A stretch of 64,000 nt of DNA from Deltaproteobacteria bacterium (GTDB lineage Bacteria > Myxococcota_A > UBA9042 > PHBI01), in contig SBGO01000356.1 in assembly GCA_006226565.1 (NCBI GenBank), positions 748-64,747 on the forward strand. The letters run 5' to 3'. Position numbers and translations under genes: made by a program. Below the pieces are notes generated by a model that saw only the letters and a program-made list of their open reading frames with translations, searched no databases and had not been told where the DNA came from. Position 1 is the stretch's first letter. Each line of letters opens with the position of its first letter. Below are positions 1,836 through 40,419 of this stretch, piece after piece.

Positions 1836-2870
1836 TCAGGCGTCGGCGACGCGGATGACGAGCTTGCCGAAGTTCTTGCCCTCGAGCTGCCCAATGAAGG
1901 CCTCGGGGGCGTTCTCGAGCCCGTCGACGACGTCCTCTCGGAAGGCGATCTCGCCGGCGGCGACCCAGGCGCCCATCTGCGCGAGGAACTCGCGGAAGCG
2001 GTGGCCGAAGTCGTCGAAGATGATGAAGCCCCGCATCGTGATGCGCTTCTTGAGGAGGGTGGACATCAGGAGCGCGCTCCGGTCGGGGCCGGGCGGGAGC
2101 GAGGTGGCGTTGTACATCGACACGAGGCCGCAGACGGGCACCCGGGCGCGGGCGTTGAGGAGCGGCAGGACGGCCTGGAAGACGGCGCCGCCGACGTTCT
2201 CGAAGTAGACGTCGACGCCGTCGGGGCAGGCGGCGGCGAGGCGGCCGCGGAGGTCGGGGGCGCGGTGGTCGAGGCAGGCGTCGAAGCCGAAGTGCTCGAC
2301 GGCGTAGCGGCACTTCTCCTCGCCGCCGGCGATGCCGATGGCGCGGCAGCCGAGGCGTTTGGCGACCTGCCCGACGACGGAGCCGACGGGGCCGGTGGCC
2401 GCGGCGACGACGACGGTCTCGCCAGGCCGGGGGGCGCCGATCTCGAGGAGCCCGGCCCAGGCGGTGAAGCCCGGCATCCCGAGGACGCCGAGGGCGAGGG
2501 AGGGGCGCGCCATGGCGGGGTCGAGCGGGACGAGGCCGGTGCCGTTGGAGACCGCGTAGTCCTGCCAGCCGGCGTAGGCGAGGACGAGGTCGCCGACGGC
2601 GAAGCGCGGGTGGTTCGAGGCCTCGACCCGGCTGACGGTCCCGCCGACCATGGGGGCGTCGAGGGCGACCGGCTCGGCGTAGGAGGGGGCGTCGCTCATC
2701 CGGCCGCGCATGTAGGGGTCGAGCGAGAGGTAGAGCGTCCGGAGCAGCACCTCGCCGTCGCCGGGCGTGGGCACGGCGACGCGCTCGAGGCGGAAGCTCT
2801 CGGGCGTGGGCGCGCCGACGGGGCGCGAGGCGAGGACGATGCGGCGGTTAATGGCGGGATCCTGGGACAT
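1836..2870 (-). CDS. NADP-dependent oxidoreductase, medium-chain dehydrogenase/reductase family (YncB/CurA/prostaglandin-reductase-like)
   Basis: Start MSQDPAINRRIVLASRP at 2870 inside ORF 1836..3014; Rossmann motif AATGPVGSVVGQ and family-typical N-terminal motifs. Confidence 0.85.
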   Translation of the reverse strand: MSQDPAINRRIVLASRPVGAPTPESFRLERVAVPTPGDGEVLLRTLYLSLDPYMRGRMSDAPSYAEPVALDAPMVGGTVSRVEASNHPRFAVGDLVLAYAGWQDYAVSNGTGLVPLDPAMARPSLALGVLGMPGFTAWAGLLEIGAPRPGETVVVAAATGPVGSVVGQVAKRLGCRAIGIAGGEEKCRYAVEHFGFDACLDHRAPDLRGRLAAACPDGVDVYFENVGGAVFQAVLPLLNARARVPVCGLVSMYNATSLPPGPDRSALLMSTLLKKRITMRGFIIFDDFGHRFREFLAQMGAWVAAGEIAFREDVVDGLENAPEAFIGQLEGKNFGKLVIRVADA

Positions 2871-2976
2871 CGGGGCCTCGGGGCGTCTGGACGCGGCGAG
2901 TCTCGCAGAGCCGGCGGTGGGCGTCGACCGCGGCGGGGTCGTGCTACGGTCGCGGGCGAGGGAAAAGGAGAGGGCG

Positions 2977-4284
2977 ATGTCGGGCGAGGGCGCCGGGGCG
3001 AGGGTGATGATCATCGGCGGGGGCGGCCGCAGCCACGCGCTCGGCGAGGCGCTGCGGGCGAGCCCGTCGGTGGCGCAGGTCGTTTTCGCGCCGGGGACGA
3101 CGGGGCTCGAGTGGCTCGGCTACGAGACGGTGCCGGTGGCGAGCCAGGATCTCCCGGGGCTCGTCGAGCAGGCGATGATGGAGGAGTACGATCTGTCGGT
3201 GGTCGGGCCGAACACGCCGCTCGTCGACGGGATCGTGGACCGATTCGAGGCGGAGGGGCTGCCGATCTTCGGGCCCATGCGGGCGGCGGCGCGGCTCGAG
3301 GGGTCGAAGGCGTTCGCGCGGCTCCTGATGGGGCGGCTCGGGGTGCCGACGCCGCGCTTCGCGGTCTGTGACACGGTCGACCGGGCGCATCACCTGGCGC
3401 AGACCCGGGCGTGGGCGCGGGTCTTCAAGGCCGACGGCATCGCGTACGACAAGGGCGTGCGGGTGACGATGCGGGCGGACGAGGCCGAGCAGGCGCTGCA
3501 CGACGTGATGTACGACAACGTCTACGGGCTGGAGTCGGACCGCATCGTGGTGGAGGAGCGCATCGACGGGGTCGAGGTGACGGTCTTCACGCTGTGCGAC
3601 GGGCGGCACCTGGAGGTGCTGGGGCACGTGCTGAACTACCCGCGGCTCCGCGACGGGGACGCGGGGCCGCCGTCGCGGGGGATGGGGCAGGTGTGCCCGG
3701 CGCCGATGGTGGACGACGCGATGGTGGCGGACATCGTGCGGCGGGCGCTGCAGCCGGTGGTGGACGACCTGGCCGAGGACGGGACCCCGCTGCGCGGGGC
3801 GCTGTTCGTGGACCTGATGCTGTCGCATGGGGCGCCGTACGTCATCGACTACAACGTGCGGTTCGGGGACCCGGCGACGCAGACGATGCTGAGCGCGTAC
3901 TCGGGGGACTTCTATCGGGTGTTGCAGGCGTGTCGGACGGGGGAGGGGCTGGCGGAGGCGGTGGCGGCGCTGACGCGGGACCCGCGGCCGCGGGTGTCGG
4001 TGGTGGCGGTGTGCGAGGGGTATCCGCAGAAGATGGTGCGGGGGGCGCGCGTGACGCTCGACCGGGCGCTCTTCGACGAGGACCCGGACCTGCGGCTCTA
4101 TCTCGACGGCGTGCGCTGGGTCGAGGACGACGGGCTCTACACGACGGGCGGGCGGACGGTGACGGTGGTGGCGGCGGCGGACACGGTGTCGGAGGCGGCG
4201 GCGCGGGCGTATGCGGCGCTCGATCGCGGGGTGCGCTTCGACGGGATGCACGTCCGGCGGGACATCGGGCGCGGATACGAGTGA
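2977..4284 (+). CDS. purD: Phosphoribosylamine--glycine ligase (PurD)-like ATP-grasp enzyme, divergent
   Basis: Start MSGEGAGARVMIIGGGGRSHALGEAL... with GGAAAAGGAGAGG RBS; N-terminal GxGGREHAL-like motif and ATP-grasp core; ~435 aa as for PurD. Confidence 0.7.
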   Translation: MSGEGAGARVMIIGGGGRSHALGEALRASPSVAQVVFAPGTTGLEWLGYETVPVASQDLPGLVEQAMMEEYDLSVVGPNTPLVDGIVDRFEAEGLPIFGPMRAAARLEGSKAFARLLMGRLGVPTPRFAVCDTVDRAHHLAQTRAWARVFKADGIAYDKGVRVTMRADEAEQALHDVMYDNVYGLESDRIVVEERIDGVEVTVFTLCDGRHLEVLGHVLNYPRLRDGDAGPPSRGMGQVCPAPMVDDAMVADIVRRALQPVVDDLAEDGTPLRGALFVDLMLSHGAPYVIDYNVRFGDPATQTMLSAYSGDFYRVLQACRTGEGLAEAVAALTRDPRPRVSVVAVCEGYPQKMVRGARVTLDRALFDEDPDLRLYLDGVRWVEDDGLYTTGGRTVTVVAAADTVSEAAARAYAALDRGVRFDGMHVRRDIGRGYE

Positions 4285-5089: not shown

Positions 5090-5166
5090 GCGCGGTTAGC
5101 TCAGCTGGATAGAGCGTCGGCCTCCGGAGCCGAAGGCCACAGGTTCGAATCCTGTACCGCGCACCA
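5090..5166 (+). tRNA. tRNA-Arg (anticodon CCG), 77 nt including 3' CCA
   Basis: Cloverleaf folded by hand: acceptor GCGCGGT/ACCGCGC, D-stem GCTC/GAGC, anticodon stem TCGGC/GCCGA with loop CTCCGGA, T-stem ACAGG/CCTGT, T-loop TTCGAAT. Confidence 0.9.
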
Positions 5167-6493
5167 ACTCGAAGCCGCCTTGGACAACGGTCCCCGTGAC
5201 CCCGTCGAAGGCGGCTTTTTCCGTGTTGGGGGCCCCTGTCTCCAAATCGTCTCCAAAGGTCGTCTCGGAGCCGACGGCGGCGCGGGCCTGCGCGACCTGC
5301 TCCGGCGACTCGGCGACGGCGGCCTCGGCGAAGAAGCGGAGGCGGTTGATCTCCTCGCCCAGGTAGTCGTCGCTCAGGTGCGAGTACAGGTCGATCGTGG
5401 TCTGGATGTCCTTGTGCCGCAGGACGCGCTGGACGAAGGCCAGGGACGCGCCGCGCATGACGAGGATCGACGCCGTCGTGTGCCGGAGGTCGTGCCACCG
5501 GATCGGGCGGACGTTGGCCTTGGGCCAGAGGCGGTGCCCGTGGACCGGGCAGCGGCGGAGGCGGTTGTCGGCGTGGGTCTCGGCGTGCTTGCAGCCCTTC
5601 TTGCGGCAGACGTGCGTGTAGCTGTCGGCGAGGCCGGCGCGGCCGAGGGCGCGGCGGACGACGTCGCAGAGGTCGGCGTCGCGGCGGAACGGGGAGCCGT
5701 CGGGCTGGGCGAAGACGAGGGCGCCGGGCGAGGCGTCGAGGGCGGCGCGCAGGAAGGGGACCAGCTCGTCGGCGATGGGGACGACGCCGTGGTGGCCGTC
5801 CTTGGTGACGGCGCGGTCGTGTGAGCCGCGGATGTAGATGCGGCGGGCCTCGAAGTCGATGTCCCGGCGCTTGAGGGCGAACAGCTCGCCTTTCCGCATG
5901 CCGGTGTAGATGGCTGTCGCGGCGAGCCACCGGTGGTGCGGCTCCATGACGGCCAGGACGGGCGCGACCTCGTTCGGGCGCAGGTAGGTCGGTGGGCGCT
6001 TGGAGACGCGCCGCCGAGTGACCTTCGCGACCGGGCTCACGCCGTGTACGCGGCCGACCTTCGCGGCGGCGTTGAACGCCCGCGACAGGAAGTTCCGTAG
6101 GTGGTTCACCGTCTGCGGGCTCAGGCCCTCGCGGTCCTTGCCGCGCAGGTAGCGCTCGATGACGGCCGGGGTCAGCTCGCGCAGCGGGAGGTCCCAGAGC
6201 TTCGCCGACGCCAGGTGCTTCTGAATCGTCCTCCGGTTGCTCTCGTCCGCCGCGAGCGAGGCGGACACCTCGTCGAGCCACCACTCCATGAGGTCGCCGA
6301 CGGTGTCCTGCGTCTTCTGCGGCAGGGGCTCGAGCCCCTCGCGCTGCCGGTCGGCGTGGAGCTGCAGCTCGGCGGCCATCCGCTCGGCGTCCACCTTGCG
6401 CTTGGCGAGGCGGACCTCCTTCCACCGGCCGTCGGAGCCCTTGTACTTCCCGTACCAGCCGTCGCGGCCCTTCTTCTTGAACACGGTCGTCAT
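5096..6493 (-). CDS. int: Tyrosine-type site-specific integrase (phage integrase family); C-terminal codons run through attL/tRNA sequence
   Basis: Start MTTVFKKKGRDGWYGKY at 6493; C-terminal catalytic region ...WHDLRHT...IDLYSH...; ORF reads toward tRNA. Confidence 0.85.
   Translation of the reverse strand: MTTVFKKKGRDGWYGKYKGSDGRWKEVRLAKRKVDAERMAAELQLHADRQREGLEPLPQKTQDTVGDLMEWWLDEVSASLAADESNRRTIQKHLASAKLWDLPLRELTPAVIERYLRGKDREGLSPQTVNHLRNFLSRAFNAAAKVGRVHGVSPVAKVTRRRVSKRPPTYLRPNEVAPVLAVMEPHHRWLAATAIYTGMRKGELFALKRRDIDFEARRIYIRGSHDRAVTKDGHHGVVPIADELVPFLRAALDASPGALVFAQPDGSPFRRDADLCDVVRRALGRAGLADSYTHVCRKKGCKHAETHADNRLRRCPVHGHRLWPKANVRPIRWHDLRHTTASILVMRGASLAFVQRVLRHKDIQTTIDLYSHLSDDYLGEEINRLRFFAEAAVAESPEQVAQARAAVGSETTFGDDLETGAPNTEKAAFDGVTGTVVQGGFELVRGTGFEPVAFGSGGRRSIQLS
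5120..5166 (+). repeat. attL: 47-nt copy of tRNA-Arg 3' part (direct repeat with 40372..40418)
   Basis: Exact 47-nt identity read in sequence. Confidence 0.75.
5171..5224 (+). terminator. Terminator-like hairpin downstream of tRNA (AAGCCGCC...GGCGGCTT followed by TTTTCC)
   Basis: Inverted repeat plus T-run read in sequence; loop unusually long. Confidence 0.35.
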
Positions 6494-6726
6494 CGGTCGC
6501 CCCTGCGGAGCGGGATCACGGCTCCGGCGTCGCTCTCGCTCCCACCCCGAGCGTACTCGACGACCTCGGCCGGGTCGAACCTGAGGTGCCCTCCGAAACG
6601 CAGATGGGGCAGATCGCCGCGTGCAGCGCGCTCGTAGACCCAGCTCCGGCTCACGCGCAGGTACTCCGCGACCTCGGTGGCCGTCCACAGCCGGGCCGAG
6701 CTCACAGGCATCGTCTTGGTCGTCAT
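6490..6726 (-). CDS. AlpA/excisionase-family HTH DNA-binding protein
   Basis: Start MTTKTMPVSS... with GGGAGGAAG RBS; ATGA overlap with int; HTH TEVAEYLRVSRSWVYERAARGDLP. Confidence 0.7.
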   Translation of the reverse strand: MTTKTMPVSSARLWTATEVAEYLRVSRSWVYERAARGDLPHLRFGGHLRFDPAEVVEYARGGSESDAGAVIPLRRGDR

Positions 6727-6928
6727 CGTCTTCCTCCCTGGCTGGTATGATTGTCGTGCCGCCGCGATGTGGTTGGACCGCGTCGTTGCGGCGCCCAAAG
6801 TTGGTTCCTCGGGTGCTTGAACGGAGCGCTCTGCTCTCGTCCTAGATTTGGCCTCGAGCGCGACCACCGTGTCTGGTCCTGCTCGTACTCGCGCTCGTTA
6901 TTCGGTCCGGCGGCTCTGGTCTCTTCAG

Positions 6929-7190
6929 CTACCCTGCTACCCGCACTACTCCCGCAAGGGACGCAGGAATTCCTCCGTATGCTCGGCAGGTTGCACGCGG
7001 TGCTACCCCTGCTACCCCGCTGGCGCGGTCCACCCCCACCCGTCAAGGGGTCTTCTTCGTTCCGACAAGGTAGATAGGTAGGTGTTCTCTCAAGTAGGGG
7101 TAGTAGGGGTAGTAGATAGAGCGGCAGAGCCGTCGTGGTCGGGATCGTCGGCGCATACCCCTGCGGGTAGTCGCCCGGTAGCAGGGGGAG
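6929..7190. repeat. Iteron-rich non-coding region (tandem TGCTACCCC x2 near 7001-7018; inverted GTAGGGGTA x2 near 7094-7111; further CTACCC/GGTAG units) - putative replication origin of the island
   Basis: Direct and inverted 9-bp repeats read in a lower-GC gap immediately 3' of the DUF927/primase module. Confidence 0.4.
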
Positions 7191-7194
7191 CGCT

Positions 7195-9174
7195 CTAATC
7201 ATTGTCGTCGTCCGGCCATAGACGCCTGGCGTCCACGACCACGACGCTGCGGCGTCTGCCGTGGATGGAACGCTGGACGCTGAACTTGCCGAGGCGGTGT
7301 TGCAGAAGAACACCGCTGTCACGCCAGTCGCGCATGAGTCCTTCGTACGCGAAGCCCTCCAGCAGCACGCGCTCGTGCAATGCGCGGGTCGGAAACGCGA
7401 CCCAGCCCTCCTCCTTGTGGTGCCATGCGATGATGTCGCGTTGCTCTGCGTTTGCTGTCCTGCTCGAGGCGTCCGCGACCTTGTGCGGATTCTCGTCGAC
7501 CCAGCTCGCGACGAGCTCGAGCCCCCGCGCGGCACCGCCGGCATCGTCAATGTCGTTGACGATGCTCGGCCATAGCGCGGTCCATGGCTCAGGGATCGTC
7601 CACCGGCCGTCCGAGTCATCGGGGAGGCTCAGCGCGCGCTCGGCGAGCCGCAGCGTCAGCTCCAGCACCGCCCGGTACCGGACCATGCGTGTTTCCTGAG
7701 AGGACTTCACGTTGGCGAGCAGCGACGACAGGATCTCTTCATACATCTCGGCCAACTCTGCGTCGCCAATCGTCATCATGTGCTGGACGAGGAGCGGCCC
7801 GGCGTGTCCGAAATTCGACTGGAGCGCCACCTCGACCTCAGCGATCAGACCGCGCGCAACCGGCACGTCGAGGCCGTCGAAGGGCGAGCCTTCGACCTCC
7901 ATCGTGCGGGTGCGCTCCCCGCCACCCTCGCTGAAGCTGACCGCAGGGGCTTCGCCCGTAGAGATGCACGTCGTCTGCCACGCGCCGGTCTGCCGCACCT
8001 GAGCGTCCGCGGTGCCTCGACCTCGGCCTCGCCCGTTGCCGATCGTCGACAACAGCGCCGGGACTGTCGTCTTGCCACGGGCGTCCTTCGTGTCGTCGAC
8101 GAACAGGGGAAGGTGCCGACGGCGGCCGATGGTCAGCTCAAGGTAGGTGTATGTGCTCGACCACGAGGTGACGAGAGAGTCCGGGCCCATGAACGGCTGC
8201 CCCCAGATCGACGCTGCGTAGCGAAGCGTCGTCGTCTTGCCCACCGAGGTCGTGCCGTGGAAGTCGACCACGAAGCTCGACGCACGAACGCCCAGGCGGA
8301 AGAGCAGCGGCGCCGCGAACGAAACGAGCAGCGCGAGCGTGATCCGCGGGAGGTACTTGACCCGATCGATCGCGTCGCGCCAGCGCCGGAACTCGCCCTC
8401 GGCCCGAAGCCCTTCGACCCAGCCATCCTCCGAAGTCGACTTCAGGCGGACCCAGCCTGCCGATGCCCATGTCGCGGGGTTCTTGTCATCGGGCTCGACG
8501 ATCGCACGCGGGCTGATGACCTTGTTTCCCCAGATGAAAGTCTCCCGATCAGCCCAGCCCATCGCGGTGGCTCCGCGAGCTGCGGGTAGCTCCGAAAGGT
8601 TGGCCTCCTCGTATGCACCGAGGAACTTGACGAGCCCGGCGGCGTTGTCGGTGCGAACCGGCAGCCCGTAGTCGGCGAGTTGCTTGATCAGTCGCGCATC
8701 GGCGAGGACGCTGCGGACCATGACCCGTTGCTGCCAGCCCGTCGCGCCACGCCACGCGAGCACCATGTGGTTGACGCCGGCATCGTCGACGACGCGGCCC
8801 AGCACCTGCACCGGGCACGACAGCACGGGGATCTCCTCGAACTCATAGCCCGCGGAAGGGTCGCCGTCTGTCGACTTCGATTTCGCCTCCCACCGAGCCA
8901 CGCCCCGGTCGCTGACTGCGTATCCCCTTGGCACGACGAGCTTGGGGGCCGGTGCGTCGGGGCATCCGCGTCCGACTCGGACGAGCGACCCATCCCCTAG
9001 ACCACCATCGCCCAAGGCCCCCGAGTACAGCTCGCGACGCGGCACGTTCTTCGCGTTCACGGTGCGATTTGCCATGGCGGCCGGCTTGACCCGGACAGCG
9101 TCCACGTCCGGCGTTGTCCGTTCCGTGTACGTGCCGTCCACAAAGCGATCGGCGTCGTCCCTACTGCTACTCAT
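7195..9174 (-). CDS. DUF927-like P-loop NTPase (phage/plasmid primase-associated helicase-like replication protein)
   Basis: Start MSSSRDDADRF at 9174 (8-nt overlap with upstream primase); Walker A GTTSVGKTT; architecture as in P4/PICI pri-rep modules. Confidence 0.7.
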   Translation of the reverse strand: MSSSRDDADRFVDGTYTERTTPDVDAVRVKPAAMANRTVNAKNVPRRELYSGALGDGGLGDGSLVRVGRGCPDAPAPKLVVPRGYAVSDRGVARWEAKSKSTDGDPSAGYEFEEIPVLSCPVQVLGRVVDDAGVNHMVLAWRGATGWQQRVMVRSVLADARLIKQLADYGLPVRTDNAAGLVKFLGAYEEANLSELPAARGATAMGWADRETFIWGNKVISPRAIVEPDDKNPATWASAGWVRLKSTSEDGWVEGLRAEGEFRRWRDAIDRVKYLPRITLALLVSFAAPLLFRLGVRASSFVVDFHGTTSVGKTTTLRYAASIWGQPFMGPDSLVTSWSSTYTYLELTIGRRRHLPLFVDDTKDARGKTTVPALLSTIGNGRGRGRGTADAQVRQTGAWQTTCISTGEAPAVSFSEGGGERTRTMEVEGSPFDGLDVPVARGLIAEVEVALQSNFGHAGPLLVQHMMTIGDAELAEMYEEILSSLLANVKSSQETRMVRYRAVLELTLRLAERALSLPDDSDGRWTIPEPWTALWPSIVNDIDDAGGAARGLELVASWVDENPHKVADASSRTANAEQRDIIAWHHKEEGWVAFPTRALHERVLLEGFAYEGLMRDWRDSGVLLQHRLGKFSVQRSIHGRRRSVVVVDARRLWPDDDND

Positions 9175-10264
9175 GACCCACCCCCGGTCGGGAGCGGTAC
9201 ACGTCGCAGCGCCGCCCAATCGTGTCGTAAATGCCTTTGAAGTAGCGCTCTCCCGCAGGATCGTTATCGGTGCGCACGACCACGCGCGAACCGCTCGGGA
9301 CGCGTGCGGCGATTTCGGGCGTCCACGAGCCGGCCACGATCCCGAAGACCGCCCACTCCGGCTGCGCGGCCCAGCAGAGGAAATCGATCTCGCCCTCCGC
9401 GATGGCGACATCGAGAGGCGCGGCGTCGTACTGCAAGACGATCCTCGCGCCCTCGTTCGCCATGACGGCCCCCTTCACGGTTGAGCCCCGAGGCGTCGGG
9501 CACTTCAGCCCGTGCGGCGGCGCGGCGTCGAGGCGGCACCAGCGTGCGCGCAGCGTCACCGGGCGCGGACCGCCTCCGTTCCGCGCGTCGTACACGTAGC
9601 CGGGCATGTACAACGGCACCATCAGGCGCCATCCGGTCCGGTGCCACGCGCGACCGGCGTGTTGAGCCCACGGGGGACGCAGGCCACGACGAAGGTCAAC
9701 GAGCGGTGCCCACGGCGGGAGCACCCGCGCCTCGTCCATCACCGTCAACTCGGCGAGCATTGCGTCGCTCACACCACGGCTGCGCAAGTAGGCGAGTACC
9801 TCGGTGTCGTCCCGGAGGGGCTGTCCGACCTGCCAGAGCGCGTCTACCTCAACGAGGGAGAGGCCACAGGGGGAGTCCGGATCGCGCGGTGCCGTCTCCC
9901 GCGGCTTCGCCCCTTGCACCTGCTTCGAGGCCGTCCACGGCGAATCCTGAAACGCCCTGCGACTCAACCCCATGAGATCGGCCGTGCGGCGTACGACCTG
10001 CTTGAAGTCGCGTCGGACATCCAGCCCATCCACGACGGCGACGAGGTCGAACGCGTCCCCACGGGCGTCGCAGCGGAAGCAGTACCATGTTCCTTCGTTC
10101 AAGCTGAACGTCGGTCGTCCGCCCTCCTTGCACTTCATGGGGCAGTAACCGCGCCAGTTCTCGCCGCGAGTGTTCACGAGCCGGACGCCGAGCGCCACGG
10201 CGAGCTCTCGGCAGTCGCAGTGTTCGCGCACCCGTCGCGCGTCGATGTCCGGACGGTCATTCAT
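9167..10264 (-). CDS. DNA primase, CHC2 zinc finger + toprim domain
   Basis: CHC2 motif YCPMKCKEGGRPTFSLNEGTWYCFRCDARGD; toprim VVVRTDNDPAGE. Confidence 0.8.
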   Translation of the reverse strand: MNDRPDIDARRVREHCDCRELAVALGVRLVNTRGENWRGYCPMKCKEGGRPTFSLNEGTWYCFRCDARGDAFDLVAVVDGLDVRRDFKQVVRRTADLMGLSRRAFQDSPWTASKQVQGAKPRETAPRDPDSPCGLSLVEVDALWQVGQPLRDDTEVLAYLRSRGVSDAMLAELTVMDEARVLPPWAPLVDLRRGLRPPWAQHAGRAWHRTGWRLMVPLYMPGYVYDARNGGGPRPVTLRARWCRLDAAPPHGLKCPTPRGSTVKGAVMANEGARIVLQYDAAPLDVAIAEGEIDFLCWAAQPEWAVFGIVAGSWTPEIAARVPSGSRVVVRTDNDPAGERYFKGIYDTIGRRCDVYRSRPGVGHE

Positions 10265-10273
10265 GAGGCACCG

Positions 10274-10468
10274 CTACTCGTCGCCGTGGGTGTAGGCCGC
10301 GCGGCGATGCGACTTCAGCCACTCCTGGACCTCGGTCGGGTCGAACCGCACGGCCCGCGGGCCGAGGTAGACGCAGGGGATGCGTCGACTCCGGACCCAC
10401 GAGTAGAGCGTCGTCACGCTCACACCCAGCCTCTTCGCCATCTCATCGTACCCGAGCAAGTCGTTCAT
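10274..10468 (-). CDS. AlpA-like HTH transcriptional regulator/excisionase family (64 aa)
   Basis: MAKRLGVSVTTLYSWVRSRRIPCVYLG HTH. Confidence 0.7.
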   Translation of the reverse strand: MNDLLGYDEMAKRLGVSVTTLYSWVRSRRIPCVYLGPRAVRFDPTEVQEWLKSHRRAAYTHGDE

Positions 10469-10802
10469 CGTTGAACCTCCTACAGCTCACGAGAACTAGC
10501 TGTACAAGCCGCCGACCGCTGGGTCACCGGGCGCTAAGTAGGCACTTGCCCTGAGGACCTAGCACCCACCAAGCAAGACCCCGCGCGCAAGACGGCGCTC
10601 AGAACGATGCACTGCGGCCTTGGCGATAGCGCGGGGCGGAGCGGTGGGGGGGCTTCGGCTCATGACGAGGGCGCCGAGGCCCCCGAGGCCGTTCGTGCAC
10701 AGGGACCCCTTGTGCGGGCTGCGTCTCGACCCGTCCCACCAATCACACCCTTGCGATACGCGTTCAAGCTCGACATCCTCGGTTCAGACCGAGGAGGAAC
10801 TC

Positions 10803-11861
10803 GTGGACAAGACCGGCGCAGACGACGCCCGCAGGCGTCTCGACGGGGCACAAGCGAGGCTAGATGCCGCTACCCGCCGGCGCTTGGCGCTCGAACTGTT
10901 CAACCACAGCACCGGAATCGGTGTGAAGGCAGAGGAGCTGGCAGCACGGGAATTCCCACTGACGCCGTGTCGGTCGTGGGACATACAGCATGCTTTCAGG
11001 TTCGCTGAGAGCGCCCGCAGCCGATTCATCGCCAGTGTGAAGGAATTCGAAGCCTCCAAGCGTCAGCTCGGCCGACTCGCGGGTGTCAAGCAATTGCTGG
11101 CCGATGTCGTGATGGACACCGAACCCGCGAGGGCCCACAGCGACGCCTGGACGACGGGGTGGCCGACGCTCAAGATCCACCACGCAGTCAAGCGGCTCCA
11201 ACATGAGTTGGCGAGGGTCGACTCCGAGGTCGTCGAAGCGGTGGCGTCACTGAACTGGCTCAACCATCGCGGCAACGTCGCGCGGCCGTTTGAGCCGGAT
11301 GTGGTGTTCCGCCGAGAGCTCGTGCGATGGCTCCTCGTCGTCCGCAGGGGACAGGCGATCGGGAGGGTCGACGCCTCGAAGCTGTGGAATACGCCCCCCC
11401 CGGCGGGCTTGGAGTCCGTCCCAACCTGGGCGGTCGCCGCGGAGACGAGCGTCGAGGACTTGGCGCGCCCCCACTGGCCTAGCCTGGCAACCGTCGATAG
11501 CGCTGGAGATATTCACCCGGAGTCGTTCAAGGCGATGCAGTACGAGGCTTTGAGGCGGCGCGTCGTCACCGAACAGCGACCTGGTGCATGGTTGACGCAG
11601 GAGGACGTGGCGTTGCTCCTCATCGCCGCGGACGTCGAGAAGGCGAGGCTGAGCGATGTATGCGAGGCTGTGCGACGCGAGTGGCGGGCCATCAAGGCGC
11701 GTGCATTCGAGGCCGAACAGACACCTGAGCGCATCAAGCCGCTGCTTCGCATCCAGCCCCGTCTGGAGCGCGGGCTGGCCAAGGAAAGTCGGAACCCGGT
11801 TCCTGATTCGCGCAATGGGACGGTGGGCATCGCAGCGGACACGTGTGCTGCCGAAGATTAG
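10803..11861 (+). CDS. Hypothetical protein (352 aa), first gene of a two-gene helicase module
   Basis: GTG start with GAGGAGGAA 5 nt upstream inside ORF 10620..11861; stop abuts ATG of next gene; lower GC3 than flanks. Confidence 0.5.
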   Translation: MDKTGADDARRRLDGAQARLDAATRRRLALELFNHSTGIGVKAEELAAREFPLTPCRSWDIQHAFRFAESARSRFIASVKEFEASKRQLGRLAGVKQLLADVVMDTEPARAHSDAWTTGWPTLKIHHAVKRLQHELARVDSEVVEAVASLNWLNHRGNVARPFEPDVVFRRELVRWLLVVRRGQAIGRVDASKLWNTPPPAGLESVPTWAVAAETSVEDLARPHWPSLATVDSAGDIHPESFKAMQYEALRRRVVTEQRPGAWLTQEDVALLLIAADVEKARLSDVCEAVRREWRAIKARAFEAEQTPERIKPLLRIQPRLERGLAKESRNPVPDSRNGTVGIAADTCAAED

Positions 11862-14507
11862 ATGCTGAGCGATTTCCAATACGACCCCGTCGAAGCCGCA
11901 AAACCCCTGCGCCCGTATCAGGTGGAAGCCGTCGCAGCGCTGTCCGCCGCGCTGGCGAACGACACGACGAGGCCGCAGCTCCTGCAGCTCGCGACGGGGG
12001 GCGGCAAGACCCGCGTGGCGAACGACATCGTGGCACGATGGATCCGCGAGCACGGTGGTCCCGTCCTGTGGATCACGAAGGATTGGCGGCTCCTGTACCA
12101 GGCTGCACGAGATGCCTCACGACGCCATCCTGGGCACATTCTGTACCGCATCGGGGGACGCCGGACCGCCTTGGGGGCACTTTCCGAGGTACCCCGCTGG
12201 TGGACTCCGACACGCAGCACCATCCTCTACTCGACATTCCAGACCGTGCTCCGCCGACTTGATGACGGGGTTCTGGACGGCGTGGCGCTTCTTGTCTGGG
12301 ACGAGTCGCATTGGGGCGAGAACGCGAAGGCAGGGAAGATTCTCACGCAGTGTGCGCGTCAGCGGCGCCCTGTTCTTGGCCTCACGGCAACAGCCCGATG
12401 GGATACGCGATACCACGTCGTCTATTCACGAAGCTTCTTTGACCTTGTCCGCGAAGGCTACCTCGCGCAGCCGGAGACGTGGCGGGTGCGGACGGGGCTA
12501 CGCTGGTCGCCCCGACTCTCGCCCGGTGACAGCGACTTTTCCAATGTATCCTTGCGGGTTCTCGCTGAATCAGCAGAGCGAAACGACGCGATCATCAGGA
12601 CGTACGCCGAGAACGCCGACGAGTTCCGGCGGACGATCGTCTTCGCCTGCAACATCGAGCACGCCAACGAACTCGCAGAACGGTTCTCCAGGGATGGCTT
12701 TGCGGCCCACGCCATCCACACGGAAAACGACGACGCAAAGAACAACGCAGCACTGGAGGGTTTCCGCAGAGGGCGAATCCACATCCTCGTCAACGTCGAG
12801 ATGTTGACGCACGGGGTCGACGTGCCAGATGCCAACACGATCTTCCTGTGCCGCCCGACCCGGAGCGACATCCTGTTCGCGCAGATGGTCGGGCGCGGAG
12901 CGCGCAGAGCCGAAGGCAAGACTCACTTCAACATCGTCGAGTTCACGGACAACCTCTCGAAGTACGGCGAGATCCTGCGGACAACCTCATTCTTCTTCGA
13001 TGGGGCCGGTTCAACATCCGCGGTGCCGCGTTTGCGTTCGCGCTCAGCGCCGCGCGTCTCGCAGCACGCGTTTGATCCGCGCGGCGCACCTCGCTGGATA
13101 CCAGACGACGACTCGTTGCCCGAGAGCTGCCGTGGCCTGTGGTACCGCGAAGGCCAGACCTTCGGGCTGGAGCTCGAACTGACCGAGAGCAGTGCGGCGA
13201 TTCCCAGGCCGCACACGGAGCGCTGGAGCGCCGTTGCCACTGCCCTGCTGGAGGCGCTTCGGCGCGCGATCGGCAGCGAGCTGGTCGCAGCCGCCGCGAC
13301 GCCTTGGTACGCGGGCGGTGGCTCCGGTGGCAAGGACTTCTCGGTCTGGAACGTCGAGTGGGACAGCTCTGCCGGGTGGGAGGTGACGAGCCGAATTCTG
13401 TCCGGCGAAGACGGGTTCATCGAGGTCGATGCTGCCTGCGCAGCGCTCGAAGAAGCGGCAGCGATCCACGGTGTACGCGTCAATTATCGGACTGGGACGC
13501 ACCTTCATCTCGGCTGGCGCCGTGACGACATCGGCGCCCTTCGGAATGCGATCAGGCTTGTGGGCTTGTTCGAGCCGGCGCTCGGAACGCTTGTGGCGCC
13601 GTCAAGGCTCGCGCGCTTTGCGGGCGGTGTCTACGACATCAGCACACCGAATCAGTACTGCCAGCCCGTCTCGAAGGCGGTGTCCGAGCACACGCTGCAG
13701 ACGTGCCATTCGGTCACAGAGCTGCTGCACGGGCTTTCGGACTATGGGCTACGATTCGCGACGTTCAACATCAAGCCTCTAGGGACGCACGGCACCGTCG
13801 AGGTGAGACTCCACAGCGGAACCATCGAGGCTCGCAAGGCGCTGGTATGGGTGAGCTTGTGGCAACAGCTCCTATGGGCGGCCGAGAACAAGACTGGAAT
13901 GCCAGAGTTGGAGTACAGGCAGGTCATAGTCCCCGACGCCGACATCATCGAGCTCGCGCGGGAGTGGCTCCCGGCCGCCATCCAGCCCCTGCAAGCGGCG
14001 TTCCTCGCGCGCGTCGCGCGGCGGCGGGCCGAGGTCGTTGACATGTGGCGGGCGCGTCCAGAGCTGGAGCCGTGGACGGGTTTCGCCGATTGCTGGCTCG
14101 AACTGGCCGTAGACGCGCACGGAGCCGAACCAGGAACGCTAGCCCCCCCGTTTCTCGATGCCGTATTCGACCTGCAGGTTCGGAGCGCCAATCATGGCAC
14201 ATGGCATGATGTCGCAGAGATGCTCGCCATGCTTGTTGTAGATGGCCTACTGGTTGAACCAGCGTTTCTTGAGGCTCCGCCGAACGGCCGTGCTGTCGTG
14301 ACTGCGCGAACGTCCGAGGGCATTGTCCCCGTGCTTCATGTGTGGGACCACCCAGTAGGAATGAAGTTCTGGGTGTACGCCACGCCACCGGGGGAAGATC
14401 TCGGACGGGGGCGTGCCGTCTACACCGAGGTCCGCGCTGCGGACCCATCGTGGTGGAGCCAACTGCTTCGGCTACTCAGCACCACACTCACGGAGGGCCC
14501 GGCGTAG
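11862..14507 (+). CDS. SF2 helicase (ResIII/DEAH-type: TGGGKT, DESH, helicase-C QMVGRGAR) fused to ~450-aa C-terminal domain of unknown function
   Basis: Helicase motifs I, II, VI read in translation; 881 aa. Confidence 0.8.
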   Translation: MLSDFQYDPVEAAKPLRPYQVEAVAALSAALANDTTRPQLLQLATGGGKTRVANDIVARWIREHGGPVLWITKDWRLLYQAARDASRRHPGHILYRIGGRRTALGALSEVPRWWTPTRSTILYSTFQTVLRRLDDGVLDGVALLVWDESHWGENAKAGKILTQCARQRRPVLGLTATARWDTRYHVVYSRSFFDLVREGYLAQPETWRVRTGLRWSPRLSPGDSDFSNVSLRVLAESAERNDAIIRTYAENADEFRRTIVFACNIEHANELAERFSRDGFAAHAIHTENDDAKNNAALEGFRRGRIHILVNVEMLTHGVDVPDANTIFLCRPTRSDILFAQMVGRGARRAEGKTHFNIVEFTDNLSKYGEILRTTSFFFDGAGSTSAVPRLRSRSAPRVSQHAFDPRGAPRWIPDDDSLPESCRGLWYREGQTFGLELELTESSAAIPRPHTERWSAVATALLEALRRAIGSELVAAAATPWYAGGGSGGKDFSVWNVEWDSSAGWEVTSRILSGEDGFIEVDAACAALEEAAAIHGVRVNYRTGTHLHLGWRRDDIGALRNAIRLVGLFEPALGTLVAPSRLARFAGGVYDISTPNQYCQPVSKAVSEHTLQTCHSVTELLHGLSDYGLRFATFNIKPLGTHGTVEVRLHSGTIEARKALVWVSLWQQLLWAAENKTGMPELEYRQVIVPDADIIELAREWLPAAIQPLQAAFLARVARRRAEVVDMWRARPELEPWTGFADCWLELAVDAHGAEPGTLAPPFLDAVFDLQVRSANHGTWHDVAEMLAMLVVDGLLVEPAFLEAPPNGRAVVTARTSEGIVPVLHVWDHPVGMKFWVYATPPGEDLGRGRAVYTEVRAADPSWWSQLLRLLSTTLTEGPA

Positions 14508-14606
14508 TCCATCTCTGGATCGCGATGCGGCGCGCAGTCATCGATCCCGAACACTGCGCGTGGAGCGAAGCCATGTTGAGCGGCAGAAGCGGCCCCACGA
14601 CGGGGG

Positions 14607-16205
14607 TCAAACTCGGGCTTCGCCACCTATTGTCGCAACGATGCGGCCCGCGAGAGCCTCGAACACGCTCGCGCTGGCGGGCGCGAATGATGCGTTCCCG
14701 CTGCCGGTTGGTCTGGTGATGACGCGCCCTGTCAAGCCATCGACTCCAATGACCTTCCGGCCGCTGCCGCCGAGTCGAATCTCGCTCGTGCCGTGGACGT
14801 AAGCCTTCCCAATCTGACGCCCCGAGCTCTCATCGTACACGGGGCTACCGGTGTCCACGCCGAAGGTCAGGTGGATTGCCCGATTTTCGACGAGCTGTTC
14901 GCCACGCGCAGACAGCTCGATACTGTCACCCCGAGCAACGAGTAGATCGCCGCGCACCAGTCCGTCGACCATGGCGTCGGCAGCTCGAGCAGACATCCCG
15001 AAAGCGGTCGAGGCAAGCTCGCGAATCTCGGCGCGGGAACGGCCGGTCGCGATCGCCGCATATGACGCCAACTGTTGCAGGGCTCCGACGAGGAACGGGC
15101 GCGCGTCCGCCGTCCCAGGGGGCAATCCCCCGGAGATCTGTGCCACGAGCTTCGCGTATTCCACCGTCCGATCGAAGAGGCCGCCGACGCACACCACACG
15201 GCGTAGCCCGCTGCGACGTCCAGCGCGCCCCGCACGCTGTAGGAACGAGGAAACCCCCGATGGTGCGTCGAAGAGCACGCAGGTATCCACATCCCCGATG
15301 TCGATTCCCACTTCGAGCGTCGTCGTCGCGACGACGAGCCCGACCCGTGCCTTCCGCAGGCGCTCCTCGACGGCCCGTCGTCCGCTGCTGGACAGCGATG
15401 CGTGATGAGCCATGCAATTCTCGCGAAGAAATCCTGTCGAGAGCCAGCCGCAGAGATCCTCGACGCGCCGCTTGCTTCTTGCGAAGCCGATCAACTTTCG
15501 GCTGCCAAGCTCGCGGAGGAAGTCGACAAACGCCTCTCCTCCCTCGCGTCCGGCCCGAACCCAATCGTAGTACGAGACATCCAGTCCCTGCTGGTCCCCA
15601 TCCTCGATGATGATTGGATCTCGCAAGAGCCGCGAGCGCGATGGCAAAGTGAGGTCAGGGATCGTCGCTGAGATACCTATCCTCCGCGCCTTCACCCCCG
15701 ACATGTCGAGGCGCGCTAGCAGCCCCGCGGTCTGAGTACCTCTCGGCCCCTTGAGGAAATCGTGTATTTCGTCGATGAGCACTTCGGTGATGTCGCTGAG
15801 TTCACCAGGACGGCGGCATAGGGTGATATCGAGCCCTTCGGGAGTGCGGATCAGGACGTCGGTCACTTCGTTGTCCCGCACGGTGTTCTTGTCAGACGTG
15901 GCGACGTCGAGCCGCAGCCCCAGTGCTTCGAGGACGGGCGCCATGCGTCGGTGAAGGTCGGACGCGAGGGCGCGCGTCGGAGAGAGTACCAGCGCGCGCG
16001 TCTTCCCCCCTTCGCGTGGCCGATCTAGCAATGCCTCGACCACTGGCAGGAAGGCAGCTTCAGTCTTGCCGCTCCCTGTCGATGCCGTGATCAAACCATC
16101 ACGGTCTGTCCGAAGGCGCTCCAGCGCTTTCTCCTGCACTGGTCGCATCTTTCCACCGAAGCGGCCGAAGAATGCACGCTGTATCCGCTCATGGTTCGCA
16201 GTCAC
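14607..16205 (-). CDS. DExH-box (Lhr/BrxHI-like) helicase
   Basis: Motif I ASTGSGKTEAA, II VLIDEIHDF, III SAT, VI QRAGRAGR; GTG at 16205 gives GTGA overlap with upstream gene; alternative ATG at 16148 has GGTGGA RBS. Confidence 0.75.
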   Translation of the reverse strand: MTANHERIQRAFFGRFGGKMRPVQEKALERLRTDRDGLITASTGSGKTEAAFLPVVEALLDRPREGGKTRALVLSPTRALASDLHRRMAPVLEALGLRLDVATSDKNTVRDNEVTDVLIRTPEGLDITLCRRPGELSDITEVLIDEIHDFLKGPRGTQTAGLLARLDMSGVKARRIGISATIPDLTLPSRSRLLRDPIIIEDGDQQGLDVSYYDWVRAGREGGEAFVDFLRELGSRKLIGFARSKRRVEDLCGWLSTGFLRENCMAHHASLSSSGRRAVEERLRKARVGLVVATTTLEVGIDIGDVDTCVLFDAPSGVSSFLQRAGRAGRRSGLRRVVCVGGLFDRTVEYAKLVAQISGGLPPGTADARPFLVGALQQLASYAAIATGRSRAEIRELASTAFGMSARAADAMVDGLVRGDLLVARGDSIELSARGEQLVENRAIHLTFGVDTGSPVYDESSGRQIGKAYVHGTSEIRLGGSGRKVIGVDGLTGRVITRPTGSGNASFAPASASVFEALAGRIVATIGGEARV

Positions 16206-17413
16206 CGCTTGCGGCCGCCGTGGTACCTTCGGTGATCCATCGCGGCAATCGCGTGCCGGACTATCTCGCGCGTCCCGTCGTTGACATGCTGCGACTTGAC
16301 TTCCTTGACGATCTCCTGGGCAGGAAACGCTACCTTGGTCCCATGTGCAGACTTGTACAAGTCGTGGATTTGACCGACGAGGGCTTCGATGCCGTGGTGA
16401 TCGAACGGGGTGAGCTGGAGCGGTGTGGCGCACACGTCTCGACTAATCGACCGTGCCAAGCCATAGGCGTGCGTGAAAGCCATGACAACGTGGATCCGTG
16501 ATGGGCTCTGCCCAAGATACCGCGGAGAGTAGGAATCGCGGTAGTGCTTGAGGCCACTCGTGTCCATGTTGCTCGCTGCCAGCGCCAAGCCGACCATGAC
16601 GTCCCAGGCCCGTCCAGCCCGATACGACGTACTCGCCCATTCGGTCCGCTCGGCCTCGTCGAGGATCATGACCAATCCTGGGACGCCGGCGTGTGCGAGT
16701 TCATGCGCCAGCCAGTTGATCTTATTCACCGCGTGGTTTGCCGCAGTCATCGCGTTGGGAACGTCTACATGCAAGTGGGCGGCAAGATCTGGTAAGTACT
16801 GAAAACCGAACCTCGCCCAGGTCACCGGAATGTCTCGCTGAAGACGGTCAAACCGCTTCATGATCGCATTCGGTCCGGGGAACTCACGGTAGACACTCTC
16901 GAGAAGGTCATTCTCGGCGGTGAAGTGAAAGCCGCCCCGGCGAAGCGCTCGCAGGAGAATTCCGAGCGCGTCTGAGCCCGCCAGCCTTCGGCCGTCAATG
17001 CGCACGGCGAATGCGCGAGGAAGGGCCATGACCAAGGATCTCGGGTGCTCGGCCGAATTGCTGGACGACCCCATCTCCAGTCGTATGACCGCGTAACCCT
17101 CTTCTTCGGCGCGCAGTGCCAATAGCTCGCACAGATGCGACTTGCCGCTACCGTACTGGCCGACAAGCACCTGGGTGGAGCCGCCGGGACTCCTGCGAAA
17201 GCCGTTGAGAAGTTGGGCGAGTTCAGCATCGCGACCGTATGTGGCGTGTCGGACAACGGCCCGATTCACCACGCCGGCACGCATGGCTTCGAGTGCGGCC
17301 CTCGCCTCGAAGCGACTCGCGAAATCTTCGGTCCTCTTGATGGAGTTCGCGAGCCTGGTTCTCTCCATCAGAAAAGAACGTAGGAGTTCCGCCATCTCAC
17401 GCCGGCCACTCAT
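16202..17413 (-). CDS. P-loop NTPase, BrxD-like (DUF2791-like) paralog B
   Basis: Walker A GQYGSGKSHL, Walker B LVMILDEAE; GGAGGCGAGAAGG RBS. Confidence 0.75.
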   Translation of the reverse strand: MSGRREMAELLRSFLMERTRLANSIKRTEDFASRFEARAALEAMRAGVVNRAVVRHATYGRDAELAQLLNGFRRSPGGSTQVLVGQYGSGKSHLCELLALRAEEEGYAVIRLEMGSSSNSAEHPRSLVMALPRAFAVRIDGRRLAGSDALGILLRALRRGGFHFTAENDLLESVYREFPGPNAIMKRFDRLQRDIPVTWARFGFQYLPDLAAHLHVDVPNAMTAANHAVNKINWLAHELAHAGVPGLVMILDEAERTEWASTSYRAGRAWDVMVGLALAASNMDTSGLKHYRDSYSPRYLGQSPSRIHVVMAFTHAYGLARSISRDVCATPLQLTPFDHHGIEALVGQIHDLYKSAHGTKVAFPAQEIVKEVKSQHVNDGTREIVRHAIAAMDHRRYHGGRKR

Positions 17414-17440
17414 GCCTTCTCGCCTCCGTCGTGGAGTTCG

Positions 17441-18682
17441 CTACCTCGCGTCCGTCACGAAGTTCGAGATTTCGGAGTCGCTAGGCGGACCGGCACTGCG
17501 CGCATGGTACAGGGCCTTGATGAACGTCTTGACGAACATCCGCCGAAAAGAAACATCGACGGTCTCGCGTAGCACGGCCCGTGCGACACGCTCAGCAATC
17601 CGAGCGCCGTCGCCGTCCGAAAGCTTCGGACTCAGACCGGCTGCATTGAACAGGGCAAGCAGCCGCTCGCCCAACGCGACGCAGAATCGCGTCTTGCTTC
17701 CGTCATCCTGGTAGCGATCGTCCAGAACGATCCGCGGCGCCGGAGGCAAGGTGGGGAAGCCTGTCGTCCGGACCCGCTGGTCGAGGGCCTGGTTGTCGGC
17801 GCTCAACATGCTCTTGAATTCGGTCCACCCCGGAATCGAATAGAGGAACATGACTCCGGGCCAGTCCGAGCCCTTGAGGGTCTCGTTGATGATCTGCACG
17901 AGGTTGTTCGAAGCGGTCTTTCGCTCCTTCGTGTTTGCGATGGACAGGGAGCGGTCCCCTTCGTCCATGATGAGAAGCAACCCCGGATAGCCGATCTGTC
18001 GGAGCCACACAGCGAGGGTGCGAATCGCCAGGGAACCACTGCGCACGTCGACCTTCTCGAGAACCCCCTTCCTCTTCAGCGCCGGGGCGATCATGCCCGA
18101 GTTGAGGTAGACCATGACCTCGTCGTATGTGGTGCTGTCACCCGACGCAACCGCGAGACCTGCGAGTTGGATGGCGATCCGCATGCTCGACAGTGGCAGG
18201 TCCCCCGCCTTTTGGAGCACCGACTGGGCGTACTGGACGCTATCACCGTCCCAGTCTGCAGGTGGTTCGACCCATGTCCGAATGATCTCTCCGATGCCGC
18301 GAGCGTTCGGGTGCCCTGGGCGCGGTGCCGTCAGCTGCTTGACGACGCTACTGTAGATGAGATCGAAGCGCGTAAGCGGGCAGGAGTCCTTGTTGAGCTC
18401 AATGAAAGCGCTTGCGAACCCGTGGCGGTGGGCTAGGCGCTCTACCGCCCGCAAATAGTGGGTCTTGCCACCACCGTAGTACGCTTCGACGAGCTTGAAG
18501 GTCCCCTGGTCCGTGTGGCGCAGAAGCCCATCCTCTCCGAAGTACTCCTCCTCGAACACGCGCAAATCGTCATCGATGCCAACCGAGATGAGGTTCGTCA
18601 CGCTGGGCGACGGTGCGACTCCGCCCACCAAGCTCTCGATCGCAGCGCGTGCATCATATCGATTGAGATCGGAAATGGTCAT
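17441..18682 (-). CDS. P-loop NTPase, BrxD-like (DUF2791-like) paralog A
   Basis: Walker A YYGGGKTHYL, Walker B LLLIMDEGD; AAGGAGA RBS; ATGA overlap with upstream gene. Confidence 0.75.
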   Translation of the reverse strand: MTISDLNRYDARAAIESLVGGVAPSPSVTNLISVGIDDDLRVFEEEYFGEDGLLRHTDQGTFKLVEAYYGGGKTHYLRAVERLAHRHGFASAFIELNKDSCPLTRFDLIYSSVVKQLTAPRPGHPNARGIGEIIRTWVEPPADWDGDSVQYAQSVLQKAGDLPLSSMRIAIQLAGLAVASGDSTTYDEVMVYLNSGMIAPALKRKGVLEKVDVRSGSLAIRTLAVWLRQIGYPGLLLIMDEGDRSLSIANTKERKTASNNLVQIINETLKGSDWPGVMFLYSIPGWTEFKSMLSADNQALDQRVRTTGFPTLPPAPRIVLDDRYQDDGSKTRFCVALGERLLALFNAAGLSPKLSDGDGARIAERVARAVLRETVDVSFRRMFVKTFIKALYHARSAGPPSDSEISNFVTDAR

Positions 18683-20806: not shown

Positions 20807-20871
20807 AGGGAACTCTCCTGGGAACTCGTCGCCTCACCGGGATAGGCATCTCATCCTTCGCAAGGAGATGG

Positions 20872-21321: not shown

Positions 21322-21443
21322 GTCGTCCCTCCGTCGAATTGGCGCCTCAGCAACGCCATGCACAGTGAGTCAGCCTAGACGGCGTTGTGCTTCGCCTCTG
21401 GAGCTGCAGGATGCCGGGTCCCGAGTCTCTCGCCGTACGCACA

Positions 21444-27042: not shown

Positions 27043-27050
27043 CGTTCACC

Positions 27051-40418: not shown

Positions 40419-40419
40419 A

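Follow-up and report, generated by a model that had tools for sequence, protein, structure and literature searches.

A rep-adjacent iteron array as candidate replication origin of a tRNA-Arg island carrying type 3 BREX

The rep-xis gap and its repeats

The DNA analysed here (the window) is a stretch of 64,000 nucleotides from a Deltaproteobacteria bacterium assembly (GCA_006226565.1, contig SBGO01000356.1, positions 748 to 64,747), and all coordinates refer to it. The window holds a genomic island that is inserted at a tRNA-Arg gene and carries a type 3 bacteriophage exclusion (BREX) system. Close to one end of the island a gap of 467 bp (6727-7194) separates the gene for a DUF927 protein, designated rep, from genes for a small helix-turn-helix (HTH) protein and an integrase. 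Read along the minus strand toward the tRNA gene, the order is alpA-like gene, pri, rep, the gap with a repeat array, xis-like gene and int. An earlier note on this DNA, made by inspection, had drawn attention to iteron-like repeats in the gap and suggested that they mark the origin of replication of the island. The parts of the array and the adjoining genes are listed here.

6928-7190: iteron array, proposed vegetative origin (oriV) of the island; the CTACC(C/C) core occurs about 12 times, in two sets of opposite orientation
7154-7188: rep-proximal outer set; head-to-head TACCCC-TGC-GGGTAG (7156-7170) and GGTAGCAGGGGG (7177-7188); repeat-finder entries I5, I13, I21 and D11
7094-7119, minus strand: rep-proximal inner pair; two CTACCCC units with a 9-bp spacing (GTAGGGGTA GTAGGGGTA on the plus strand), then a degenerate GTAGATAG; entries D12 and I3
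7020-7093: central spacer, candidate DNA-unwinding element; holds two degenerate copies, AGGTAGAT and AGGTAGGT, at 7068-7082
7001-7018, plus strand: rep-distal inner pair; two TGCTACCCC units with a 9-bp spacing, inverted with respect to 7094-7111; entry I3
6928-6952, plus strand: rep-distal outer set; GCTACCCT, GCTACCCG and ACTACTCC at 8-9-bp spacing; entries D4, D8 and I2
7195-9174, minus strand: rep, predicted DUF927/MCM-like initiator-helicase of 659 aa with a C-terminal winged helix (Pfam DUF927, 4.5e-34)
9167-10264, minus strand: pri, DnaG-type primase (CHC2 zinc ribbon and Toprim domains); the last 8 nt overlap the start of rep
10274-10468, minus strand: AlpA-like HTH_17 regulator at the head of the replication operon
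6490-6726, minus strand: xis-like HTH_17 protein of 78 aa, first gene downstream of the array
5096-6493, minus strand: tyrosine integrase of 465 aa; the open reading frame (ORF) passes through attL into the tRNA gene

Copies of the core run forward at 6929, 6937, 6946, 7003 and 7012 and in reverse at 7069, 7077, 7097, 7106, 7165 and 7177. Exact CTACCC occurs seven times within the array, about five copies being degenerate. Outside the inner pairs the exact hexamer stands at 6929, 6937 and, on the minus strand, 7165; the copy at 6946 reads CTACTCC, GGTAG units are found at 7069, 7077 and 7177, and TACCCC at 7156. The scattered CTACCC/GGTAG-type units that had been listed across 6929-7190 are thereby located. 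The first tandem is as originally described, TGCTACCCC occupying 7001-7009 and 7010-7018 both by reading of the sequence and in the repeat finder. A second tandem, GTAGGGGTA at 7094-7102 and 7103-7111, is also present, but it is not the exact reverse complement that had been claimed: the two 9-mers have a common 7-bp core (CTACCCC/GGGGTAG) in a shifted register. A repeat finder recovers the repeats as D12, D4 and D8, with the inverted pairs I2, I3, I5, I13 and I15. The best inverted pair between 6700 and 7400, I3, has 16-nt arms (7003-7018 and 7097-7112) that are 94% complementary.

The exact CTACCC sites, taken in the orientation of rep, are arranged as >>><<<< with start-to-start distances of 58, 9, 86, 9, 66 and 8. 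The inner pairs at 7097/7106 (minus) and 7003/7012 (plus) are inverted and 86 bp apart, and each has an outer set beside it. Counting both strands, CTACC is found 10 times in 270 bp as against 103 times in 64 kb, an approximately 21-fold enrichment and the highest local enrichment of any 5-mer in the window (the runner-up reaches 11-fold). Half of the exact CTACCCC copies in the window (four of eight) fall inside the array. With up to one mismatch allowed, 11 of 203 matches lie within its 262 bp, where 0.8 would be expected. The island contains no second CTACCCC cluster.

Nearest-neighbour free energies place the least stable duplexes of the entire 64 kb here, whether measured over 30 bp (7067-7097), 50 bp (7071-7120) or 80 bp (7041-7120), and the inner repeat pairs face each other over this segment. 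The GC content of the central spacer is 58% overall and 50% in 7040-7093. The conspicuously low GC first ascribed to the whole region holds for this centre and relative to the chromosomal flanks (72-74%); the gap as a whole (63.2%) barely differs from the island (64.4%). That the region is non-coding is borne out, there being no ORF with a coding signature in third-position GC content (GC3), no Rfam match and no tRNA in 6727-7194. A perfect 10-bp direct repeat, GGAGCGCTCT, which contains the palindrome AGCGCT, brackets the gap at 6823-6832 and 7187-7196; such a pair is at chance level for a 700-bp search.

Inverted repeats might instead form a structured RNA, a cruciform or a single-stranded DNA hairpin, as in a terminator-like or single-strand-origin element. 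The array does contain the long inverted pairs I2, I3 and I5, and a minus-strand transcript of 6920-7194 is predicted to fold better than shuffled sequences (-120.9 kcal/mol, z = -2.75). However, two opposed repeat sets yield a score of this kind automatically, and complementarity is confined to the repeated core. Pairing explains neither the tandem direct copies at one-helical-turn spacing nor the unbalanced sets seen at related loci described below (seven copies in one orientation at L002 and L005), and Rfam gives no match even at E<=1. We regard a role through base pairing as very improbable.

The Rep protein

The array lies directly 3′ of rep, as had been noted: the rep stop codon is at 7195-7197 on the minus strand, the first copy (7177-7188) is 8 nt beyond it and the array spans 8-267 nt downstream. 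The rep-proximal inner pair begins 82 nt past the stop. When Rep was compared with PDB sequences (phmmer), the matches included Cch (5dgk, 6.9e-18) and 8tch (5.1e-17), a "pathogenicity island protein" annotated as the initiation-of-replication protein of Staphylococcus aureus pathogenicity island (SaPI) SaPIbov1, with helicase activity. A profile built from Rep and six relatives matches 8tch over its full length (4.4e-56), the C-terminus aligning to that of 8tch, and also TcpK (2.6e-4). The AlphaFold2 model, made from a 22-sequence alignment, has a mean predicted local distance difference test (pLDDT) score of 81.8 and a predicted template modelling (pTM) score of 0.72. In Foldseek the model retrieves 8tch first (2e-26) and Cch 5dgk second (3e-26), with TMt of 0.66-0.67. 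The family alignment shows no variation in Walker A GKT or in the other motifs.

The C-terminus of the model (about residues 583-652) is predicted to fold as strand-strand-helix-helix-strand-strand, with pLDDT mostly between 75 and 93. Foldseek superposes this domain on the winged helix of TcpK bound to oriT DNA (TMt 0.69-0.76, root-mean-square deviation 2.1-3.6), and relatives of Rep bear PF18662 (Cch HTH). Homology and predicted fold together point to a self-loading AAA+ helicase of the SaPIbov1 Rep/Cch type, and the model to a C-terminal winged helix of the kind expected of such an initiator.

According to PMC9371898, SaPI origins consist of 6-12 penta- or hexanucleotide iterons immediately downstream of rep. 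The iterons are divided equally between the two sides of an AT-rich centre, with two or more per side in opposed orientation, and are bound by the C-terminal winged helix of Rep (PMC9371898). The DUF927 protein Cch is related to SaPIbov1 Rep (PMC7581432). Phage-inducible chromosomal islands (PICIs) of Gram-negative bacteria have the same origin layout, and a cloned pri-rep-ori segment is functional (PMC6092414). The origin is thus at the 3′ side of rep in experimentally studied homologues as well (PMC9371898, PMC7581432, PMC6092414). The present array, with its seven CTACCC (10 CTACC) copies, falls in the iteron range of these origins, and its two opposed sets, each of at least two iterons, enclose a centre predicted to melt readily.

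The system resembles SaPIbov1 in its DUF927-type, apparently self-loading helicase with a C-terminal winged helix, in the position of the putative origin 3′ of rep, in the opposed short iterons around an easily melted centre, in the separate primase gene upstream of rep and in an integrase acting at a specific att site. It differs in that sequence identity between the two Rep proteins is only about 17%, and in the primase, which is DnaG-type (CHC2 plus Toprim) here and an archaeo-eukaryotic primase (AEP) type in SaPIbov1 (PMC7581432). Other differences are the high-GC, probably Myxococcota host, the size of 35 kb, the BREX cargo, packaging genes, which were not found, and the placing of rep, ori, xis and int at the att end.

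Arrays at other DUF927 loci

An alignment of seven Rep sequences was used to scan species-representative genomes. This gave 62 loci from Myxococcota, Desulfobacterota-type metagenome-assembled genomes (MAGs), Bacillota, Planctomycetota and others. The 47 with at least 600 bp of downstream sequence were used; they encode Rep relatives at no more than 35% identity. No locus from the window's own genome, or from a close relative, was obtained in the scan. The earlier note had allowed that equivalent elements might place the origin elsewhere, and the outcome was favourable: the densest hexamer cluster of each 7-14-kb locus lies 0-400 bp past the DUF927 stop in 37 of the 47 loci, where about three are expected by chance. 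These clusters have 6-12 copies per 300 bp.

The arrays of the relatives are built alike: AT-rich spacers are surrounded by tandem sets that run in both orientations, with their units spaced 8-12 bp. The core itself varies from locus to locus (CTCCAC, GCCCCA, CGGGGA, GAGAAC, GTTACA and others), with more than 25 different cores in all. Its sequence tracks the relatedness of Rep: close Reps have the same core, and some fairly close Reps have switched it. When the C-terminal domain was tested for covariation with the iteron, the result was no more than suggestive, as pairs that share an iteron are also closer overall. We take these observations to indicate iterons specific to their Rep within a homologous architecture.

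The spacing is also recurrent. Counting exact hexamers only, an inverted pair (8-9 bp), an interval of 91-123 bp and a further pair (8-9 bp) are found in 19 of the 37 loci, and in 17 of these 19 the GC content of the spacer is below that of the locus. For 19 of the 37 loci, this zone contains the 50-mer of lowest duplex stability in the locus. Flank gaps in the relatives are mostly 41-57 bp and the first inner pair is typically 84-104 nt past the stop; for the window the corresponding values are 9-86-9 for the pairs and centre, 58 and 66 for the flanks and 82 for the start. With the window included, the full plan reads outer set, 41-66 bp, inner pair (8-9 bp), low-stability centre of 86-123 bp, inner pair, 41-66 bp, outer set. 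It measures about 200-240 bp in the clearest cases, typically starts within about 100 nt of the rep stop and is seen in Bacillota, Myxococcota, Desulfobacterota-type MAGs, Actinomycetota and the window. As an annotation test, looking for the densest hexamer cluster within 400 bp past a DUF927 stop yields an array in about 80% of loci.

The genes that follow these arrays are diverse: superfamily 2 (SF2) helicases, a serine recombinase, a LexA-like repressor (on the other strand), an ERCC4 nuclease, TerS and unknowns. Only two loci have xis/int of the window's type in this position. Since the array is conserved after the DUF927 stop whatever follows it, it appears to travel with rep and not with xis-int. 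This bears on the idea that the array is the operator or promoter region of xis-int, bound by an AlpA-like or Xis-like HTH_17 protein that controls excision. The array is indeed upstream of xis (6726) on the same strand, with no terminator-like site between rep and xis (scans of 6400-7500 gave no intrinsic terminator); two HTH_17 proteins are encoded nearby, and AlpA-type proteins activate PICI genes (PMC6092414). Yet the scan of the same interval found no sigma-70-like promoter, and the array sits 8 nt from rep but ends 200 bp short of the xis start. Moreover, most of the 37 distant loci with such an array past the DUF927 stop are without xis/int of this type. Control of xis-int is, on this evidence, quite unlikely to be the primary role of the array, though Rep binding may have a secondary effect on regulation.

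Small replicons were also searched with tblastn for DUF927 genes among plasmids, the PLSDB gene tables being incomplete. In the Geobacillus plasmid pSJEF4-2-2 (L065, 13,067 bp) an array of TGTCACAA lies directly past the DUF927 stop. This plasmid encodes a CHC2 primase and the DUF927 protein and has no other annotated rep, within the limits of those gene tables. A unit of about 6.5 kb is present twice, genes and array recurring at an offset of about 6.4-6.7 kb, and the record looks like a head-to-tail dimer. In a circular record of 16.3 kb from Streptomyces virginiae (L066) an array of GGGGAACA occupies the same position, and the gene order is prim-pol, DUF927, gap, integrase and terminase. 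The primase-DUF927-array module therefore exists on circular extrachromosomal DNA. We note that the centre of the S. virginiae array (7990-8070 of L066) is not AT-rich; it is an alternating purine-pyrimidine tract, GTGCATGTGTGCGCGTGCATGTGCGTG..., which may be an alternative means by which a high-GC origin is made to open readily. Plasmid pTAO100 proved uninformative: it has a small-ORF/toprim/DUF927 module but also RepM, and its repeat cluster is away from the DUF927 stop.

The candidate origin in its island

The island extends from 5120 to 40419 (35.3 kb), is bounded by a perfect 48-bp direct repeat and has a GC content of about 64% as against 72-74% in the flanks. Its attachment features are as follows.

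5120-5167, plus strand: attL; the 48-bp repeat is the 3′ part of tRNA-Arg(CCG), 5090-5166
40372-40419, plus strand: attR; identical 48-bp repeat (48/48)
5238-5257, plus strand: candidate integrase arm-type sites; GTCTCCAAA twice at 11-bp spacing, with a twin at 40238-40257

The GTCTCCAAA pairs lie inward of attL by 71 bp and inward of attR by 125 bp and are probably, to judge by sequence and position, the arm-type sites of the integrase. TCTCCAAA, a motif with no relation to the iterons, has just four copies in 64 kb, all of them in the arm pairs. Short direct and inverted repeats beside xis-int are typical of attP arms, and the array could on that ground be read as arm-type sites of integrase or excisionase. 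We rejected this reading and give it almost no credence. No less than 1760 bp separates the array from the att core, and CTACCC is found in neither att arm, although the same motif would be expected on both. Both arms are filled by GTCTCCAAA, which occurs nowhere else in the 64 kb; since the arm motif of the integrase is a different one, the array is not part of attP. Beside attR, CTGGGA is present four times at 40281-40348. The integrase ORF has its first stop at 5096. Reading antisense, it crosses a hairpin with a T-run behind it immediately beyond the tRNA, then the att core, and extends 24 nt into the tRNA gene. As it crosses the att core, its last eight codons would differ between the integrated and the excised form; the catalytic tyrosine (DLYSHL) is about 85 residues from the end.

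We consider it likely that the 260-bp array at 6928-7190 is the cognate Rep-binding oriV of the tRNA-Arg island. The original suggestion of an origin is supported in that all features of a SaPI/PICI-type origin that can be read from sequence are present. Most likely the array is a rep-adjacent iteron origin of that type, a class to which it appears to belong in every respect that the sequence allows to be compared, and hence a new example of a known design. The framing as SaPI/PICI-type needs one correction, in that it applies to the origin and not to the island. PICIs are about 10-15 kb and carry capsid-redirection, terS or interference genes; this island is 35.3 kb, and no packaging genes were found among the ORFs scanned, several of which have no Pfam match. 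It should not be called a PICI.

A mechanism can be proposed by homology with SaPIbov1 Rep and its origin. Int and Xis would excise the island, and the C-terminal winged helix of Rep would bind the CTACC(C/C) iterons. Two Rep hexamers would assemble on the opposed half-sites 7094-7188 and 6928-7018, the low-stability spacer (about 7020-7093) would melt, and Rep would load itself as the replicative 3′-5′ helicase. Priming would fall to the neighbouring DnaG-type primase (9167-10264), and a host polymerase would copy the circle. Rep binding, melting, helicase loading and continued replication of the island are all inferred by analogy. A further and more tentative proposal, possible but in our judgement doubtful, is that the spacing plan provides a fixed geometry on which two MCM-like Rep hexamers are loaded head to head, and that the island is a replicative BREX carrier whose copy number rises upon induction.

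Several observations weigh against the assignment as origin. Rep has no close relative; in a protein search the next best after the same island has 34% identity. The comparative loci are not all independent and include several near-identical pairs. The central spacing of 86 is just under the family range of 91-123, the flanks of 58 and 66 exceed the usual 41-57, and each outer set is oriented like its inner pair, whereas in several relatives they are opposed. The spacer is AT-rich only relatively (50-58% GC vs 64-74%), and the least stable segment partly covers the iterons themselves. The sole other copy found, a Logan contig from SRR8389942 (L001) of 35,264 bp corresponding to 5138-40401, stops 30 bp into each att repeat and does not show a circular form. 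We considered whether this contig is the excised circle and rejected that; its ends are attributed to the att repeat breaking the assembly graph (an assembler k of 31 was assumed).

Some of these points would also fit an origin by descent that no longer works, with the replication module left as a relic in a defence island that has been domesticated and become immobile. At 35 kb the island is large, it has an IS66-family transposase, and its type 3 BREX cargo is under host selection; an extrachromosomal form was not detected, and the spacing is slightly off the family norm. On the other hand, the module looks intact: int, xis, rep, pri and alpA are uninterrupted ORFs, the att repeats are identical (48/48), and the separate arm-type sites are kept in matched pairs. 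Four iteron cores are perfect, and decay would be expected to erase 7-bp repeats fast. We see a small but real chance that the array is such a relic, and keep a working origin as the preferred interpretation.

A classical theta-plasmid iteron origin of the RepA/Pi/TrfA kind was also considered and rejected, the unit being 8-9 bp with a 5-7-bp core, the sets opposed and the predicted initiator a helicase. In pSC101, R6K, RK2 and P1, direct iterons of 17-22 bp lie beside an AT-rich unwinding element and the rep gene, and the initiators are winged-helix proteins of the RepA type which recruit host DnaA and DnaB. The island resembles these plasmids in having its repeats beside rep and a candidate unwinding element; it differs in the opposed 8-9-bp units and the helicase initiator. 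The alpha protein of satellite phage P4 is a primase-helicase initiator that binds direct and inverted 8-bp repeats, TGTTCACC, through its C-terminal DNA-binding domain. P4 also has a regulator of the AlpA/Vis type, but alpha is a fused protein with an SF3-type and not a DUF927 helicase, and it needs a second repeat site, crr, several kb away. The island, unlike P4, has a single CTACCCC cluster.

Gram-negative PICIs such as EcCICFT073 are similar to the island in the AlpA-like HTH gene heading the operon, the origin 3′ of the initiator with two iteron sets and an AT-rich region, and an integrase of their own (PMC6092414). They differ in that pri and rep are fused and int is at the opposite end, and they are about 10-15 kb, helper-phage-induced and equipped with packaging or interference genes (PMC6092414); genes of the latter kinds were not found among the ORFs scanned in the present island. 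In SCCmec, one of the staphylococcal cassette chromosome (SCC) elements, Cch2 binds direct repeats located between its own gene and the recombinase gene (PMC7581432), a position matched here by the gap between rep and xis-int. Cch2 belongs to a different helicase family, however, with only three AAGTG iterons, and SCC elements use serine recombinases; a canonical primase and origin had not previously been identified for them (PMC7581432). The mobilizable islands MGIVchHai6 and MGIVflInd1 share the synteny of small HTH_17 regulator, DUF927, xis and int. Their DUF927 gene is dispensable for mobilization, its role is termed "elusive", and no primase or origin is described (PMC7449626).

The comparison suggests a possible function for the DUF927 gene of the HTH-DUF927-xis operon in such islands (PMC7449626). 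It would also extend the SaPI rule, origin directly past rep, to DUF927 helicases in several phyla. For the 35-kb type 3 BREX island it supplies a concrete candidate pair of origin and initiator, and suggests that defence islands of this sort can replicate once excised, a point relevant to their stability, dosage and transfer. Were the copy number of an induced island to rise, defence gene dosage or transfer would rise with it. One paper describes pMF1 as the only autonomously replicating plasmid identified in Myxococcota. Hardly any plasmids are known from this phylum, for which the compact alpA-pri-rep-ori cassette and its numerous relatives in Myxococcota MAGs could serve as a starting point for replicative vectors.

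The remainder of the island is largely cargo. The type 3 BREX system is complete and occupies 21444-36358 on the minus strand (BrxF, BrxC/PglY, PglXI, BrxHI/HII, PglZ and BrxA); a 675-aa HATPase_c_4 protein is encoded within the same stretch. Genes for a NucS-C/DUF7669 protein and an EVE-domain protein are located just downstream of it, at 20036-21363. An SF2 helicase fused to an amidoligase_2 domain (11862-14507, plus strand), a DEAD/Cas3-like helicase (14607-16433) and two BrxD/SngB-like ATPases (16202-18682) may together make up a second defence module at 11862-18682. The 413-aa ORF at 10620-11861 has no Pfam match. Near attR, pieces of the IS66-family transposase (DDE_Tnp_IS66, zf-IS66 and LZ_Tnp_IS66) are found in overlapping ORFs at 36562-37757, and the element may be frameshifted or decayed. 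In the flanking chromosome, PurD (2767-4284) shares 91% identity with a 'Deltaproteobacteria bacterium HGW' MAG protein and 65-74% with proteins of Myxococcota. On this basis the host is probably an uncultivated member of the Myxococcota; an actinobacterial host, to which the GC content had pointed, was rejected. The chromosomal flank also contains an ORF of 3248 aa (52285-62028) with a GC3 of 0.95.

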